Position numbers: made by a program
Assembly (NCBI GenBank): GCA_963824385.1
Contig: CAWGPD010000001.1
Span: forward strand, 242,136 to 306,135
Reading direction: 5' to 3'
Length of the DNA stretch: 64,000 nt
DNA from: an uncultured Nitrososphaerota archaeon
Lineage (GTDB): Archaea; Thermoproteota; Nitrososphaeria; Nitrososphaerales; Nitrosopumilaceae
Shown here: one piece after another, positions 21,001-27,000 of the stretch
Numbering within the stretch: position 1 is the first letter of the stretch
How the letters are laid out: each line of letters opens with the position of its first letter

Positions 21001-24000
21001 ATACCTATGGGACGGGACACTTTTGAGCAATACACCGCTCAGAGAAGTTATAGACGCATCTCCAATTTGCGACAAAAAAGTAATTATAGTAAATCTATTT
21101 CCCCGCAACCAAGAGGAACTTCCTCGTAACATGTCAGAATCATGGCACAGAGCAAGAGATATCATGCATACAGACAAGACAGACCAATCAGTACGAATGT
21201 CCAAAATAATCTCAAGATATCTACTAATGATAAAAAAGATGTATGATATCTTGGAATCTACACCGCTTGATGAGAAAAATAAGAAAAAATTCAACGAGTT
21301 AGAGTCAGAGTATCATAGACTTGCATGCGAAAGGGGCACTGTAATCAAAGAGATAGTCCGAGTTGAAAGAAAAGAAGAATCTCACTATCTATTTGAAGAT
21401 GCTGATTTTTCAGTGGATACAGTAAAGAAGCTTATACAAAATGGGGAAAGAGATGCAGAAAAAATCCTGGCAGATTTTGGAAAAAACTGATATTTCAGAA
21501 TTATAAAAATAGAAAATATTTGTGGTTATCATATAGCAAGTTGGTAATACTGGCATCTTCAAAAGTTATAAGTAAAGAGTTTTAGCAAATATTGAACAAA
21601 AAATTGAGCGATAAAAAGAAACCCAATGATAACGAAGAATTTCTTGATGAATCTTCCGAAGATAGCGAGGATGAACTCGATGAATTTCTGGATGATGAGT
21701 TTGAGGAAGACAACTCTTCAGAAAAATCTTGATTTTAAAAATATATAACAATCACTTAAAAGTGAGAGTTGGTTTTAATACATAATGACTGATTCTCAAT
21801 ATGACTCTGAAATTGAGGAAGTATCAGCTATGATCCTTGCAGATAAAATATCCTTGGATGAGCAGGACAATTCAAAGTTAAAAAAATATCAAGATTTTGC
21901 AAAAAAACAATTCCGTTTAGACGAAGAACAAGCAATCCAACTTGTAAACGAAGCATTTTTGTATCTAAAGTTAAAAGGTGCAGATTCTGCGGATCTTCTA
22001 CAACAGGGAGATCAATTCGGTGCAGGTTTTAGCTAATAAAATCAAAATAAAATAACAACATAATGAAGAAGCGTATCTTACAAACTAAACTTTAGTCTAG
22101 TCTTTGCAGATATTGCAACTATTGAAATTATTGCAGCTACAAGAACTATAAAGGACAGTTCGCCAAATTCTGGAACTACCTGCGTTCCAATGATCTCTAT
22201 TTGCTGAGTGCCTTGTTGAAATGACACAGTCACAGTTCTATCAGTACTAGTTTTGCTTTCAGTAAAATCAGTATCTGCCCCATCAACTAGTACAAAGAAT
22301 TGATCATCACCAGTAGATGTTTTGGCATCAATTAGTGCCCTTGGCATAGTAATTGTCATGTTTCCATCACTTGCAGACTTGATGAAGACAATAAGAGAGG
22401 TGTCCTGTTGACTAATCGATATAGTGTCTAATGTTGCTCCAGTCATGCTATAATTTACAATGTATGATTTACCACTTTGTGAGTCTTTGACAGTAAACGG
22501 TTGTGATGTTTGTGCAAATACAGGAGCCATGCCTATTGAAAATATGATAACAGTCATGATTGCATATGAGCCCCATTGCATGTGTTCTTTTTTTTTATGT
22601 CGTATTTGACTTTTGCTAGTAAGTGCCACATTCTACAGACTAGAAAATTGGAAATAGGGCCACTCTAGCAAAATATCAGGTGGAATTGCTTTTGACAAGA
22701 CATCACATGATTCTCTCAGTAATGCTGTTGGGCATAGTAATGTTATCTTTTGTTGCATATCATGAAAGTTATGCAGTGACAGATTATCAAAACAGTCAGC
22801 CAAAGATTACTATCACTATTAGTTATACCAACAATACATCAATGACTCATACAATTCTTGTAAATAGCAACCAGAAATATACAGTTTCACAGGAATATTC
22901 TTGGACAAGCGATAATTTTACTAGATTCAACTTGCAAGGATATCATATTGACAATGGACCTTTTATTCCCATTCAAAGAGAATCGGATGGAAATTTCACA
23001 TTAGATATTTTAACAGATTCTAATCACTCAATAGTTTTTTTAGCAAAACCTCAATTTGAAATTATTACATCAGATACAGACAAGATAAGTTTCTCGCCTC
23101 CATCTCCCACAAATGATACATGGTTTGATGCAGATTCAGATGTACAAATCATTGCACCATATGTGCTACAATCAGATCAAGAAAACACACGACGACAGAC
23201 TTACCGGATGGTCGTTGGATAGTCCAGATATCAATGTAATTTCAAGACAAGAATCAGGGACTTTCAAATCTCATTTTGTTCACATGTCAAGTATGCATAA
23301 AATTGATCTAGAGTATATGACACAGTATTATATCAAAGTAATTTCCAATTTTGGGCGAGCTCTTGGAACAGGGTGGTATGATTCGGAGACCATTGCAGAT
23401 ATATCCATAATGCCCAGTGATGATGTTCTTGTCAAACATGTCTTTACAGGATGGCAGGGCCAAGTCATAGGAAGTGGAAATCAGGAATCTGTACAAGTAT
23501 TTGTAGATTCGCCAAAGACCATTGTGGCCAATTGGTTTGTCGATTATACCAATGTAAGCATCATTTCAATATCTGTCATAGCAGTTGTAGTTGGATTAGT
23601 AATTTACCAGAAAAGAAGAGTCCCTTCAAAGGCATAAGCATAGAAAATGGGAGCGAGAATTTAAAACCATCATGTTCAATTACATACGTGTTGCTACAAA
23701 GCCAAGATCCCGTAGCCATACGTGAAGAAATTCAAAACATCCTAGTTACTAATGGTTTTAAAAGAGAATGCTTTTCCAAGATTTTAGATTATACAATAGA
23801 TCTTTTCGAGTCAAAGGGCTTGGGTGTCGATTATTATGGATATCACAATATTGTTCACGAGTTAGAAGTGACCTATGTTACTTTACTTGCGGCCCAATGG
23901 GAAAGCACGCATGGAATTTTAAAGCCTGAAGATTTTCCCTATCTTTTTGTCGCTGCACTTTTTCATGATTATGATCCTCAGAAAAAAGTAGACAAGCCAC

Positions 24001-27000
24001 ACGAAGAAGACGCGGTCAAATTTGTTATGACAGATGAAAAACTCGATGCGTTATTAAAAGATGCAAATATTGATAAAAATTTGATTGCCGCATTAATTCA
24101 TCGAACTACATATCCTTGGAATGGAGAGATTAAAGAAAATACAGAAAAGAAAATAGATGATTGTCTTAGTAAGATACAAGCTGCAAATGAAGATGAGGTC
24201 AAGAAAGAACATTTCAAGAATATGGGATGGTTTCTTTCAGTTACAGATAGAATTGCAGGATATACTCTCGGTGATTTTACAAAAGCATTGGAGATGGCAC
24301 AGAAAAACGCTCATGCATTAGCGTGGCATCCATATTATATCGTTAGAAGATCAGTGGCATATTTTGAAGATCTTCTCAATAATGATGCAGAGATGTATCA
24401 AAGAGTGTTACGTGCACTTCCAAGAGACATGAGAAAAAATTTCACAGACAATGTTTTAGCTTTTATGAGATTAAGAGAACAGGAAATTCAGATAGAAGGA
24501 TCACTTGTTTATGATAACGCAAAATTTTTTGCAGTGATCGAACCAATGTCAAGACGTCAGGACTCTGAATTTGTAAACACGTTATCTGAAATTTATCATC
24601 AATTGCCAAAACCACTCCGATTCAAAAACAATGAATTTATTGAATCAGTCATGGCCAAAGATACCATACTTAACACATTAAGATTGGGAAGTGACAATGG
24701 TCCAGTCATAGGTTTTGCAAAAGGTGGACCTCTTGAGACATACAAATTACGACCTGAAATCACCGATGTAAACTATGGATTAAACAATACTGCTTTCATG
24801 GAACCACTTGCAATAAGAATGGGATATTGGGGGCAAAGTGGTGGACGGGAAATGAGGCTACTATTCAATATGCAAGCTCAGGCAAAAGGATACAAATACC
24901 TCACAGGTTTTGCGTTACGCGATGTAATATCAAGTAGAATTAAGAGAAACGAGCCGATGGAATTTGTAAAACAATTCGATCCAGAACGTTGGGATTACTA
25001 CCGTGCAGCATTACAATAAACAGTGTGTATGCTATTGAGATTTACTTGAAATTTTTCTAGAACTGATGAATTTTACCAAATGTATCAGACCAATAAATGG
25101 CCAAGATATGACAATTATCAAAAACACAGACCAAACGGCTTGTCCATAATTAAGATAATTTGCTAACAAGTTCAGTGGAAATACGTATTGTATCACACTA
25201 TATGGTATAAAATTAGACAAGATTGGTAAAACATAAGATTGCAAGGCATTCCATCCTACAAAAACTGTAATAAAAAATAAAATTGTTTTTCGTCCAACAT
25301 ATTTTTCAAATCCTTTTCTTTTAATTTCAGTCGTTTTTTCACCAAGTTCTCTTATTTCATCATGTAATTTCGTTATTGCAAATTCTACATTTTTCTGATA
25401 AGATTCAGGGTCTTGTGGGCCTAGACATAGCGGAACCATGATTTGTAAGTATTTTTTATCGGAATCTGGAAGCGGTCTTCCTTCTTGTAAAAGTTCAAGA
25501 AGATATTCCAGTCTTCCTTTATCACCTTTGCCAAGAATCAGAATTTGTTGGATTGCGCCTATTAGATCTTCTGACAACATATAATTCAGAATTTACCCAG
25601 ATAAAAGCGATTAACTATACGGTGAAAGTAATCAGATTTTTAGTCACTCCAGCCTCTCAAAATAGATTGATATAATTTTAGAAGATAATTCCAATTACAC
25701 AAGAATCAGACATAAACAAAGTTGAAGAAGAAATTCTGTTAATTTACTTTAGAATGATTACTGCGGTTGGTGGCAAGGCTGGATGTGTCACTGTGATAGT
25801 CACGGTAGCCCCATCCTTTCCAAATTCATTCTTGACAATATTTGAGAACACTAGGTCCTCAGATCCGCCAAGAGGAACATTTGGTGCAGTAAATGAAGGG
25901 TTTGCAGTATTTGCATTCATCAATTGTACTGGTTCACCAGAAACTTGTGTCCAAGAGAATGTCAAGTATGAGCCTGTACTCTTTGTACCATCAAGTGTAA
26001 CTGTATCACCACCATGAACTACTTGATCTTGACCTGCATCAGCTTGTGGTGGTGGACCTGGTTCAGGCCATGCTGCAAAAACATATTGTTCACAAGAACC
26101 TACTGGGGCACCGGATTGACTAATTGTCAACTGGAAATCAAATACGTTACCTCCAGAAGTGGATGGAATAGATACTGTTGGAGCTAAATCAGTTGTAGAT
26201 GAGATTCCAATTGGCATGCCAGAGATTTGAGCCCATTGATATGAAAGTGGAGAATCAGAAGGATTGTTGACTGCCTCTGTTAGTACTGCTGAACCACCTG
26301 CATAGGATCTAATTATAGGTCCACAACTTAATGTTGCAATTTTGTAAGCAGAAGAGCTGATAACATTTACAGTTACAGAGTCTGAACCAATACCACCATT
26401 ACCGTCATTTGCAGAGATGGTAAAGTGTAAAGTCGCATTACCGCCAGGAGCAACAGATGGTGCGGTAAAAGTTGTAATTAGATTAGTTGGATCAGTCAAA
26501 GTAACTGGTGAACCTGAATCTTGGGTCCATGCATAAGTCATAGTATCACCATCTGGTGAAGTAGCACTGGCCATAAGAGTAAGTGGATTTCCTTCCATCA
26601 CTGTAAGTTCATGAGTGGTTGTTACTACTGGAGGATGATTAACATGAATAACATTAAGGGTAAAAGTTGTAACACTTGAAAGTCCTTGAGGATTAACTAC
26701 GGTTAGTGCAAATTCCAAGTCTACTGTTTGACCAGATGCAACAGCTGGAGTTGTAAAACTAACATCGGCACTGGAAGTAGAGGATAATGATACTGCAGGA
26801 CCAGATAATTGTTCCCAAGAGTAGGAAATATTTTGGTTCTGAGGATCAGTTGATTGATCACCAGATAGAGTGACAAGAGTTTGCTCGTTTACAGTTTCAC
26901 TATTTGGAGTTGATACAGCTCCAGTTTGAGCATATGCAGAAACTGAAGATAGTCCGAGTGAGAATAATGTAACTGCCAAAACTGCAAAAATTGCTCTTGA

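Follow-up and report, generated by a model that had tools for sequence, protein, structure and literature searches.

A 443-aa protein encoded in the window (the whole 64,000-nucleotide stretch of a Nitrosopumilaceae contig analyzed here) combines, in a single chain, an N-terminal HD domain whose fold is nearest to that of class I cyclic-nucleotide phosphodiesterases (PDEs) with a C-terminal GNAT domain. The reading that we tentatively prefer (probability of roughly 0.35) is that this protein, hereafter HD-GNAT, is a one-component acyltransferase gated by a cyclic nucleotide (cNMP); a link to cNMPs, in whichever direction, we consider fairly probable. A preliminary description of the locus had proposed a cyclic-nucleotide module coupled to acylation. 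Both folds, the restriction to ammonia-oxidizing archaea (AOA) and the cyclase gene upstream of clade-B copies are in line with this proposal, but the class I PDE identity that it assumed was overstated.

Gene and domain architecture

The gene claimed at positions 23688..25019 (+ strand, as are all features below) is real and was recovered as an open reading frame with a GTG start; the true start is perhaps the next codon, TTG. Upstream lies a BRE/TATA-like archaeal promoter motif (23651..23666), recognized in the sequence, whose TATA-like part starts 28 nt before the start codon, which suggests that the HD-GNAT transcript may be leaderless and stand-alone. The motif is kept at 12 of the 12 same-genus loci in which a script located the gene (at one more locus, the gene was not located). 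The predicted model (pLDDT 91, close to the 90 given before) consists of the PDE-fold HD domain (residues 8–245; 23709..24422), supported by structural matches and by profile matches to PDE chains; a long helix (residues 246–275; 24423..24512; DSSP on the model), a candidate relay in which F252, F259, and E266 are invariant among 87 sequences; and the GNAT-fold domain (residues 276–443; 24513..25016), with invariant E372, R390, R411, R417, and Y437. The protein is soluble and near-core in family f1, and its homologs number 2702 at E ≤ 0.001. NCBIfam matched 0 of 87 family members and PADLOC 0 of 5 proteins; phage and plasmid records contained no match to the family, and the viral contigs searched yielded one weak HD match. 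No paper on the protein was found in the literature searched; gene tables in the supplements of AOA core-genome studies may nevertheless include it under an HD-domain name.

The PDE-like domain

The N-terminal domain is all-helical (DSSP on the model). In VIA comparisons, ranks 1–17 were occupied by class I PDE domains for both the whole model (Z 15.4–18.1) and the HD domain alone (Z 15.0–17.7, rmsd 3.3–4.2, 227–245 residues aligned), as the preliminary description had reported for its top 17 matches. That description had cautioned that a Z of 17 on a helical domain lies only moderately above background; with the domain alone, the best non-PDE HD protein reached Z 12.8 over 172 residues, and lower values were obtained for GppA (12.1), Rel/SpoT (at most 9.9), HD-GYP (at most 8.6), and SAMHD1 (at most 8.4); HD-GYP, RelA/SpoT-Mesh1, GppA, and SAMHD1, compared by fold alone, were listed at Z 7.8–12.1 with 141–197 residues aligned. 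Among the Foldseek matches listed for the domain, class I PDEs alone appeared (TM 0.45–0.64), and profile matches to PDE chains (E 1e-5) covered the first motif only. In fold, the domain thus stands nearest to class I PDEs, with a clear margin.

Class I PDEs (PF00233; PDE9A, 2yy2/3qi3; PDE5A, 1t9r/9lss; RhoPDE, 5vyd; PDE4D, 1zkn) are, accordingly, the nearest structural system: the helical fold of about 230–245 residues (Z 15–18) is shared, as are the YHN-x-x-H and HD motifs, the distal Asp ligand, the catalytic His, and an aromatic residue (Y225/F226) near the Phe-clamp position. Residue conservation was counted over 143 fused sequences and 41 unfused relatives. In the Y52-H53-N54-x-x-H57-E58 motif (23841..23861), H53 is the presumed general acid and H57 a metal ligand; Y52, H53, H57, and the metal-binding pair H93-D94 (23964..23969) are present in 143/143 fused sequences. 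D187 (24246..24248), a distal metal ligand judging by its position, is found in 138/143 and replaced by Glu otherwise; in deep-branching f2/f3/f5 sequences, position 187 is Glu in 11 of 12. These residues match the PDE4D metal ligands His164/His200/Asp201/Asp318 (H57, H93, D94, D187) and general acid His160 (H53) (PMC12839185); H53, H57, H93, and D94 were aligned to PDE5 by HMMER, and D187 was placed by position. The invariance reported earlier for this site stands for all residues named except E58 (141/143), and D94, described as nearly invariant, is fully so.

The remainder of the site departs from class I PDEs, from which the domain also differs in its 10–15% identity. The class I signature H-D-[LIVMFY]-x-H-x-[AG]-x(2)-[NQ]-x-[LIVMFY] (PMC10865986) occurs in 0/143 fused sequences, with P97 in the place of the second signature His of PDE5. 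The protein scores 18.8 bits against PF00233, below the Pfam gathering score of 24.8; matches at E ≤ 0.01 were obtained for 44 of the 87 members, the best of them at E 1.1e-4, and cover profile positions 1–45 only. The profile alignment to solved PDEs reached the first motif only, and the PDE4 numbering given for the C-terminal part follows spacing. No column in 200–232 has Gln in more than 28/143 sequences, and at the expected place of the purine-binding Gln369, position 222 in a register inferred rather than taken from coordinates, Ser, Ala, or Thr is found; nucleobase recognition must therefore differ from that in known PDEs. Likewise, no column in 203–226 has Asp or Glu in more than 3/143 sequences, where Glu339, the partner of the catalytic His, would be sought. 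Going by spacing, position 210 is the probable Glu339 equivalent. It lies in a remodeled helix, N207-A208-H209-A210 (24306..24317): in all 41 unfused relatives, Leu occupies position 207 and Glu position 210, whereas position 210 is Ala, Ser, Gly, or Thr in 141/143 fused sequences. E58 (0/41 in unfused relatives) and E106, which together with N207 is present in 143/143 fused sequences and 0/41 unfused relatives, might either of them substitute for the lost Glu. The conserved basic residues K99, K103, R139, and R188 line the rebuilt base pocket. Because the signature is absent, no Gln is conserved and the Glu of the unfused relatives is lost, the domain has the class I PDE fold, as claimed, together with its metal ligands, but is not a member of class I.

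The GNAT domain

The C-terminal domain adopts a GNAT fold (VIA, Z 13–14.3). LasI, previously given as a match at Z 15.1, scored 14.0, tied with many other GNATs, and no subfamily stands out; the AHL-synthase chemistry that a LasI match might suggest is therefore unsupported. The PF00583 assignment of several relatives was confirmed (L070, L088, and L103 reach the cut-off). With the GNAT superfamily (PF00583; protein N-acetyltransferases and LasI/FeeM-type enzymes), the domain shares the fold, the beta-4 Glu, and a Gly-rich loop at the P-loop position. The loop itself, which corresponds to the acyl-CoA pyrophosphate loop (residues 382–386; 24831..24845), has the variant form G-x-x-G-G in 141/143 fused sequences; the consensus Q/R-x-x-G-x-G/A (PMC4964394) occurs in 0/143. 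The variant is one residue shorter, aligning with a one-residue gap to a giant-protein relative; a relative in a giant protein has a canonical P-loop (PF00583, E 5e-10). E372 and Y437 (both 143/143) are the candidate general base and acid. Positions conserved at 95% or more number 33/166 in the GNAT domain and 50/236 in the HD domain.

Distribution and relatives

Of 201 genomes from amoA-bearing families, 182 contained the HD-GNAT gene, which was detected in 0/49 genomes searched elsewhere in the class and 0/336 elsewhere in the phylum; outside the phylum, exclusivity rests on one profile search (the best 150 of 279 matches) rather than a genome census. The fusion, described as AOA-exclusive, is so restricted in the genomes searched, but one giant metagenomic protein contains the same domains in reverse order. 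Neither single-copy status nor universality in AOA could be upheld: 2–4 full-length copies are encoded by at least 14 of the 158 genomes of the same family, and the gene is missing from 14/31 f3 and 5/158 f1 genomes. The 14 f3 genomes, three of them single-contig, gave a weak match only, to a different 790–860-aa paralog, and the five f1 genomes gave no HD-GNAT match (best E 0.04–0.09). One genus lacks the gene in 12 of 13 genomes, and three genomes of 0.8–0.9 Mb retain it.

The HD domain is part of a prokaryotic family that is also represented in Elusimicrobiota and Omnitrophota-labeled proteins. This undescribed PDE-like family comprises stand-alone proteins of 270–310 aa, giant-protein cargo, and the f3 membrane-HD-methyltransferase paralog, in which the same HD domain is fused to a SAM-methyltransferase-like domain. 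All share the domain (hhalign probability 99.9%), the metal ligands, and the lack of the Gln with the fused form, from which they differ in keeping Leu207 and Glu210 and in lacking E58, E106, and N207. No cyclase domain was found in 32 long relatives, and no cyclase near 62 loci of relatives. A search for shorter, GNAT-only relatives returned 115 matches (47–92% identity), which appear to be pieces of HD-GNAT proteins.

Cyclases and gene neighborhoods

Every one of the 201 genomes from amoA families encodes class III cyclases. The preliminary description counted none in a non-AOA control; we found PF00211 matches in 7/49 non-AOA genomes of the class. Cyclases without an HD-GNAT gene occur in 19 AOA-family and 7 non-AOA genomes. 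The cNMP-binding domain PF00027 was detected in 0/21 genomes of the source family, the largest among AOA, which leaves the family where HD-GNAT is near-core without a conventional receptor; no PF00027 match was found in the protein itself or in its own genome (86% complete), which also encodes other candidate degraders (five metallophosphoesterase matches).

In clade B (the tree comes from a quick search only), 3 of 6 copies have a Pfam-confirmed class III cyclase gene 7–13 nt upstream on the same strand, forming two-gene units (G081, G090, and G192), and 3 of 6 do not. The three cyclases keep both metal Asp residues and a Lys/Asp pair, which we take to be the adenine determinants; the three operons probably represent one event. 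Outside clades B and C, a cyclase is the immediate neighbor of 0/77 copies, the nearest being 5.6 kb away (many flanks extend only 1.5 kb). At the loci scanned in 14 f3 genomes, no head-to-head cyclase was seen. Other neighbors vary between lineages: a polyprenyl synthase gene lies upstream on the same strand at 5 of 7 f2/f5 loci, and an FAD-linked oxidase gene directly downstream in many f1 genomes.

Proposed function and alternatives

A precedent exists in Rv0998 (MtPatA), in which, as described in PMC4964394, cAMP gates a GNAT domain within one chain. Like Rv0998 and its M. smegmatis ortholog, HD-GNAT couples a C-terminal GNAT to an N-terminal domain that could, in principle, accommodate a cyclic nucleotide; the sensor of Rv0998 is, however, a CRP-type domain (PF00027), whereas that of HD-GNAT would be an unrelated metal-binding PDE fold, known here from sequence and model. 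In class I PDEs, regulatory domains are N-terminal, and HD-GNAT has a C-terminal GNAT instead. We propose that the product of the AOA class III cyclases, a 3',5'-cyclic nucleotide and probably cAMP, binds at the two-metal site. Given the loss of the Glu partner, the HD domain might hydrolyze slowly or use a rewired acid (E58 or E106), acting mainly as a sensor or timer; the helix 246–275 would relay occupancy to the GNAT domain, which would take its acyl group from acyl-CoA and place it on a lysine of a protein or on a small amine, E372 being the candidate base. This scheme is conjectural as to the ligand, the acceptor, which way control runs, and whether either domain is catalytic; the analysis itself shows the two folds, which residues are conserved, where the gene occurs, and what lies next to it. 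The gated acyltransferase is favored by the PDE-nearest fold, the invariant metal ligands and H53, the swap involving positions 210, 58, 106, and 207, the tolerance of Glu at 187, the ubiquity of cyclases, their adjacency and conserved site residues in clade B, the missing PF00027 receptor, retention in small genomes, the other candidate degraders in the same genome, and Rv0998. The missing Gln, the non-canonical P-loop, the 77 copies without an adjacent cyclase, the 19 AOA-family and 7 non-AOA genomes with cyclases and no HD-GNAT gene, the probable single origin of the clade-B operons, the three clade-B copies without a cyclase, the cyclase-free relatives, and the spacing-based mapping to PDE4 numbering argue against it. 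A lineage-wide AOA cAMP system, in which a class I PDE fold turned metal-dependent cNMP sensor directly switches an acyltransferase, is a still more doubtful extension.

According to a 2023 review (PMC10249747), no protein making, degrading, or binding 3',5'-cAMP has been characterized from archaea. HD-GNAT is a candidate for how AOA read or switch off cyclic-nucleotide signals, and a soluble, near-core 443-aa protein together with the cyclase/HD-GNAT units makes the archaeal question testable by expression and assay. Were the sensor reading true, it would provide a new type of cNMP receptor, the first cyclase-receptor pair in archaea, and a second messenger tied to acylation in key nitrogen-cycle organisms; were it to fail, the assay would still name the substrate of an undescribed prokaryotic PDE-fold branch.

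That the catalytic His is kept throughout is as compatible with an active enzyme as with a sensor. In a scheme that we consider rather unlikely, HD-GNAT would be a working cNMP phosphodiesterase: acyl-CoA bound to the GNAT domain, itself non-catalytic, would set its rate and so tie signal decay to the carbon-fixation acyl-CoA pool. Conservation of Y52, H53, and all four metal ligands fits it, as do the appearance of E58, a possible swapped acid, exactly where Glu at 210 disappears, the shortened P-loop, the second cofactor-binding fold attached to the f3 HD domain, and the cyclase-PDE operon as a natural pair. Loss, moreover, is frequent (14/31) only in f3, the family with a second HD protein, vs 5/170 elsewhere, but one or two events may account for these losses, and the five f1 genomes have cyclases and neither HD protein. 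The missing dyad Glu and purine Gln also weigh against this scheme, as does conservation of the GNAT domain, including E372, the three Arg, and Y437, at a level like that of the HD domain. We regard as similarly unlikely, if not slightly more so, a bifunctional enzyme outside cNMP signaling, its HD domain cleaving another phosphoester or phosphoanhydride (a linear or dinucleoside nucleotide, a CoA or prenyl derivative, or a protein-NMP adduct) and its GNAT domain acylating the same or a linked substrate. The rebuilt pocket with its basic residues, the unfused relatives, which also lack the Gln and any cyclase link, and the housekeeping neighbors of the main copies (polyprenyl synthase and FAD-linked oxidase) are compatible with such an enzyme; other HD families score far lower, the clade-B operon is left unexplained, and the neighbors differ by lineage, with a promoter-like motif of its own preceding the gene in the source genus.

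A role as an accessory or regulator of complex I (Nuo) appears very improbable. The gene had been described as directly behind nuoN in two families, and the two are indeed adjacent in all six f2/f5 genomes whose sequence continues downstream, but always tail-to-tail on opposite strands, an arrangement without operon meaning, and the adjacency is absent from this window and every f1/f3 locus scanned. Open frames of 920–950 aa that resembled NuoN fusions proved, at 9 of 9 loci checked, to contain a TAG stop followed by a separate FAD-oxidase gene, with frames of 438–493 aa.

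Domain architecture of the HD-GNAT protein

The HD-GNAT gene runs on the forward strand from a GTG at 23688 to a stop at 25019 and encodes a 443-aa protein. A purine-rich BRE/TATA-like motif (23651-23666, same strand) is kept in all 12 same-genus loci in which the gene was located by script (in one more it was not located). Because the codon equivalent to 23688 varies across loci L002-L013 (ATG, GTG, TTG, CTG, ACG or ATA) and the next, TTG, is constant, the start is certain to within one codon, and translation may begin at this second codon. Nearly all of the 2702 homologues (E<=0.001) are labelled as ammonia-oxidising archaea (AOA) and one as Bathyarchaeia; those with names are "HD domain-containing" or hypothetical proteins. 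The sole Pfam match is a sub-threshold one to PDEase_I at residues 52-96 (18.8 vs 24.8 bits), and none of 87 members matched NCBIfam.

The AlphaFold model, built with 87 sequences (pLDDT 91), consists of a helical domain (residues 8-245) linked by a helix of 30 residues (246-275) to an alpha/beta domain (276-443). When compared with 48,161 chains, the whole model yielded class I 3',5'-cyclic-nucleotide phosphodiesterase (PDE) catalytic domains at ranks 1-17 (Z = 15.4-18.1), as did the N-terminal domain alone (Z = 15.0-17.7, rmsd 3.3-4.2, 227-245 residues aligned), followed by an HD hydrolase (Z = 12.8, 172 residues aligned), GppA (12.1), Rel/SpoT (<=9.9) and HD-GYP (<=8.6) proteins. Foldseek agreed with this result for the N-terminal domain, and sequence profiles reached PDE chains over the first motif only (E = 0.04 in one search and 1e-5 in another). 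The C-terminal domain is a GNAT by structure comparison; LasI, previously singled out as its match, is tied at Z = 14.0 with many other GNATs. The GNAT is conserved to the same degree as the HD domain, with E372, G386, R390, R411, R417 and Y437 invariant. The consensus GNAT P-loop, as given in PMC4964394, occurs in none of the 143 fused sequences, and a G-x-x-G-G variant is present in 141.

Distribution, copy number and relatives

Among 250 genomes of the class besides our own, strong matches (E<1e-30) were found in 182 of the 201 from amoA-bearing families (153/158 in Nitrosopumilaceae, denoted f1, and 8/8, 17/31 and 4/4 in f2, f3 and f5) and in none of the 49 from other families; amoA itself is present in 197/201 and 0/49, respectively. 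A phylum sample gave 0/336 genomes of other families. Two unpublished genomes, G214 and G115, are counted in these tallies, and no claim depends on either of them alone. The gene is retained in three genomes of 0.8-0.9 Mb. The remaining 14 of 31 f3 genomes, including 12/13 of genus g31, have a weak match only; in the 10 f3 genomes that were position-checked, it lies in a 790-865-aa frame, and six of the ten, when translated, were membrane-HD-methyltransferase-like. Five f1 genomes encode neither HD-GNAT nor this paralogue. The preliminary description of the gene as single-copy in AOA does not hold, at least 14 f1 genomes having extra full-length copies. In a quick tree, f1 is separate from f2, f3 and f5, and two paralogue clades, B and C, each receive 100%. 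In one genome, a decayed inverted copy riddled with stops (G181:C1:333683-334829) lies directly beside the intact main copy.

The two-domain protein in HD-then-GNAT order was seen only in AOA, so that the claim of an AOA-exclusive fusion stands for this order but not for the combination as such: in two identical metagenome loci (L166/L167), a frame of >4195 aa encodes both domains in reverse order (L166:5626-6681), with a GNAT of the same subtype some 60 residues ahead of the HD domain, whose HD motif reads AD. This pair stands among TPR, sigma-70 region 2 and signal peptidase II domains. The 7993-aa protein P0243 contains an AOA-type GNAT and a PDE-like HD domain, far apart.

A profile search over 1.84 billion representatives gave 279 matches. 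The best 150 of the 279 include family fragments, an 800-aa paralogue, stand-alone 270-310-aa proteins and giant multi-domain proteins, the named relatives among them being from Omnitrophota, Elusimicrobiota and one unplaced archaeon. We aligned 43 matches picked for broad domain coverage, 41 of which lack the GNAT fusion. In an Elusimicrobia contig, a pair of stand-alone PDE-like HD genes lies in tandem (L135:1974-3636), one of them without the distal Asp.

Active site of the HD domain

Y52, H53, H57, H93, D94, E106, R139, T140, R188, Y192 and N207 are invariant in the 143 fused sequences; of the residues earlier reported as invariant or, for D94, nearly so, only E58 (141/143) falls short. 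D187 is Asp in 138/143; among the deep-branching sequences used in the tree, 11 of 12 have Glu here. Conserved residues of this domain cover the metal ligands and His160 of PDE4D named in PMC12839185. The class I PDE signature, as given in PMC10865986, occurs in 0/143 fused sequences, in which no column of 200-232 has a conserved Gln and no column of 203-226 a conserved acid. From the spacing, Glu210 would correspond to Glu339 of PDE4 and position 222 to Gln369. The fused family has Asn207 (143/143), Glu58 (141/143), Glu106 (143/143) and Ala, Ser, Gly or Thr at 210 (141/143), whereas all 41 unfused relatives have Leu207 and Glu210 and none has Glu58, Glu106 or Gln222; the register between the two sets is backed by hhalign. 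The switches at 58, 106, 207 and 210 indicate, at the level of aligned sequences, that the HD active site is remodelled in step with the GNAT fusion.

The f3 paralogue (L072-L075, L078, L079, L136-L164; 790-860 aa), with a membrane N-terminus, the same PDE-like HD domain and a SAM-methyltransferase-like tail, retains the conserved Glu and is a stronger candidate than HD-GNAT for PDE activity.

Cyclic-nucleotide context and possible function

Class III cyclases (PF00211) are encoded in all 201 genomes of amoA families (1-13 each; two in our own) and in 7/49 class genomes of other families. Cyclic-nucleotide-binding domains (PF00027) occur in 0/21 f1, 6/10 f2, 7/20 f3 and 20/20 non-AOA f4 genomes, a pattern rather than a test, kin not being independent. 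Our own genome has five metallophosphoesterase matches. In its cyclases (L080:1414-2214 and L081:1171-3440), Ser/Thr and Lys stand in place of the transition-state residues Asn and Arg; the second is followed after 2 nt by a 456-aa P-loop protein resembling, by eye, KaiC/RAD55.

In three of six clade B copies (G090, G081 and G192), a Pfam-confirmed class III cyclase gene on the same strand precedes HD-GNAT by 13, 13 and 7 nt, respectively, probably reflecting a single event because the three fall in one subclade. At all seven clade C loci (L064, L093, L095-L097, L099, L100), HD-GNAT and a 268-aa CBS-domain gene are arranged head-to-head; three of the seven also have a cyclase, at distances of 0.9, 2.5 and 4.1 kb (two Pfam-confirmed, one by local profile only). 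A homologous CBS gene lies at 19494-20303, 3.4 kb upstream of HD-GNAT. No cyclase adjoins any of 77 copies outside these clades (flanks of 0.4-15 kb), nor was one found in 32 long relatives or at another 62 loci, most of which carry the methyltransferase paralogue.

We put a link of HD-GNAT to cyclic nucleotides, in either direction, at a probability of about 0.63, given the PDE fold, the universal cyclases, the clade B operon and the lack of a conventional receptor; the rebuilt base pocket and the main copies without an adjacent cyclase keep it from being higher. Tentatively, we favor a scheme in which the HD domain would sense a cyclic nucleotide and gate acylation by the GNAT. The opposite direction, a PDE tuned by acyl-CoA, is somewhat less likely but has genuine support: His53 is invariant, E58 may stand in for the lost acid, and HD-GNAT is often absent solely in the group with another HD protein. 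In favor of sensing, loss of the conserved Glu is confined to the fused family, which also accepts Glu in place of Asp at a metal ligand, and its GNAT and HD domains are conserved to a similar degree. A bifunctional enzyme with no cyclic-nucleotide role, which the rebuilt pocket would suit and the clade B operon would not, we consider about as likely as the tuned PDE.

HD-GNAT may work like the class I PDE active site and like Rv0998, and is a member of neither family. PMC10865986 mentions a few class I PDEs from bacteria and archaea; the presence of a PDE-like domain in an archaeon is therefore no novelty on its own. The architecture of PDE fold plus GNAT with a rebuilt site was not found in the literature searched, and we regard HD-GNAT as real and undescribed in the searchable literature. 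For Thaumarchaeota, PMC9289680 reports both class 3 cyclases and CpdA-type annotations, and according to PMC10249747, no archaeal protein making, degrading or binding cAMP has been characterised.

Other gene neighbors

HD-GNAT was described as directly behind nuoN; it does adjoin nuoN in f2 and f5, but tail-to-tail on the opposite strand in all six genomes with downstream DNA. At 5/7 f2/f5 loci, HD-GNAT is preceded on the same strand by a polyprenyl synthase gene (three Pfam-confirmed). An FAD-linked oxidase gene lies downstream of many f1 copies. In nine f1 loci checked (L048-L055, L064), HD-GNAT ends in TAG, and in eight the oxidase follows in frame after 9-12 nt, probably a plain conserved spacing.

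In the window, HD-GNAT is flanked by a membrane-protein gene with a frameshift and by a convergent gene of 182 aa. Forward-strand ORFs 22680-23222 and 23113-23637 are halves of one ~327-aa gene (22656-23637), whole in L067 and split by a frameshift near 23195-23200, through either pseudogene formation or assembly error. A cluster at 15453-21490 contains genes for a PhaC-like synthase (16303-17376), small possible phasin and PhaE-like proteins, an alpha/beta hydrolase and a patatin (20408-21490), a homologue of which also lies near HD-GNAT in L066, L068, L122 and L125.
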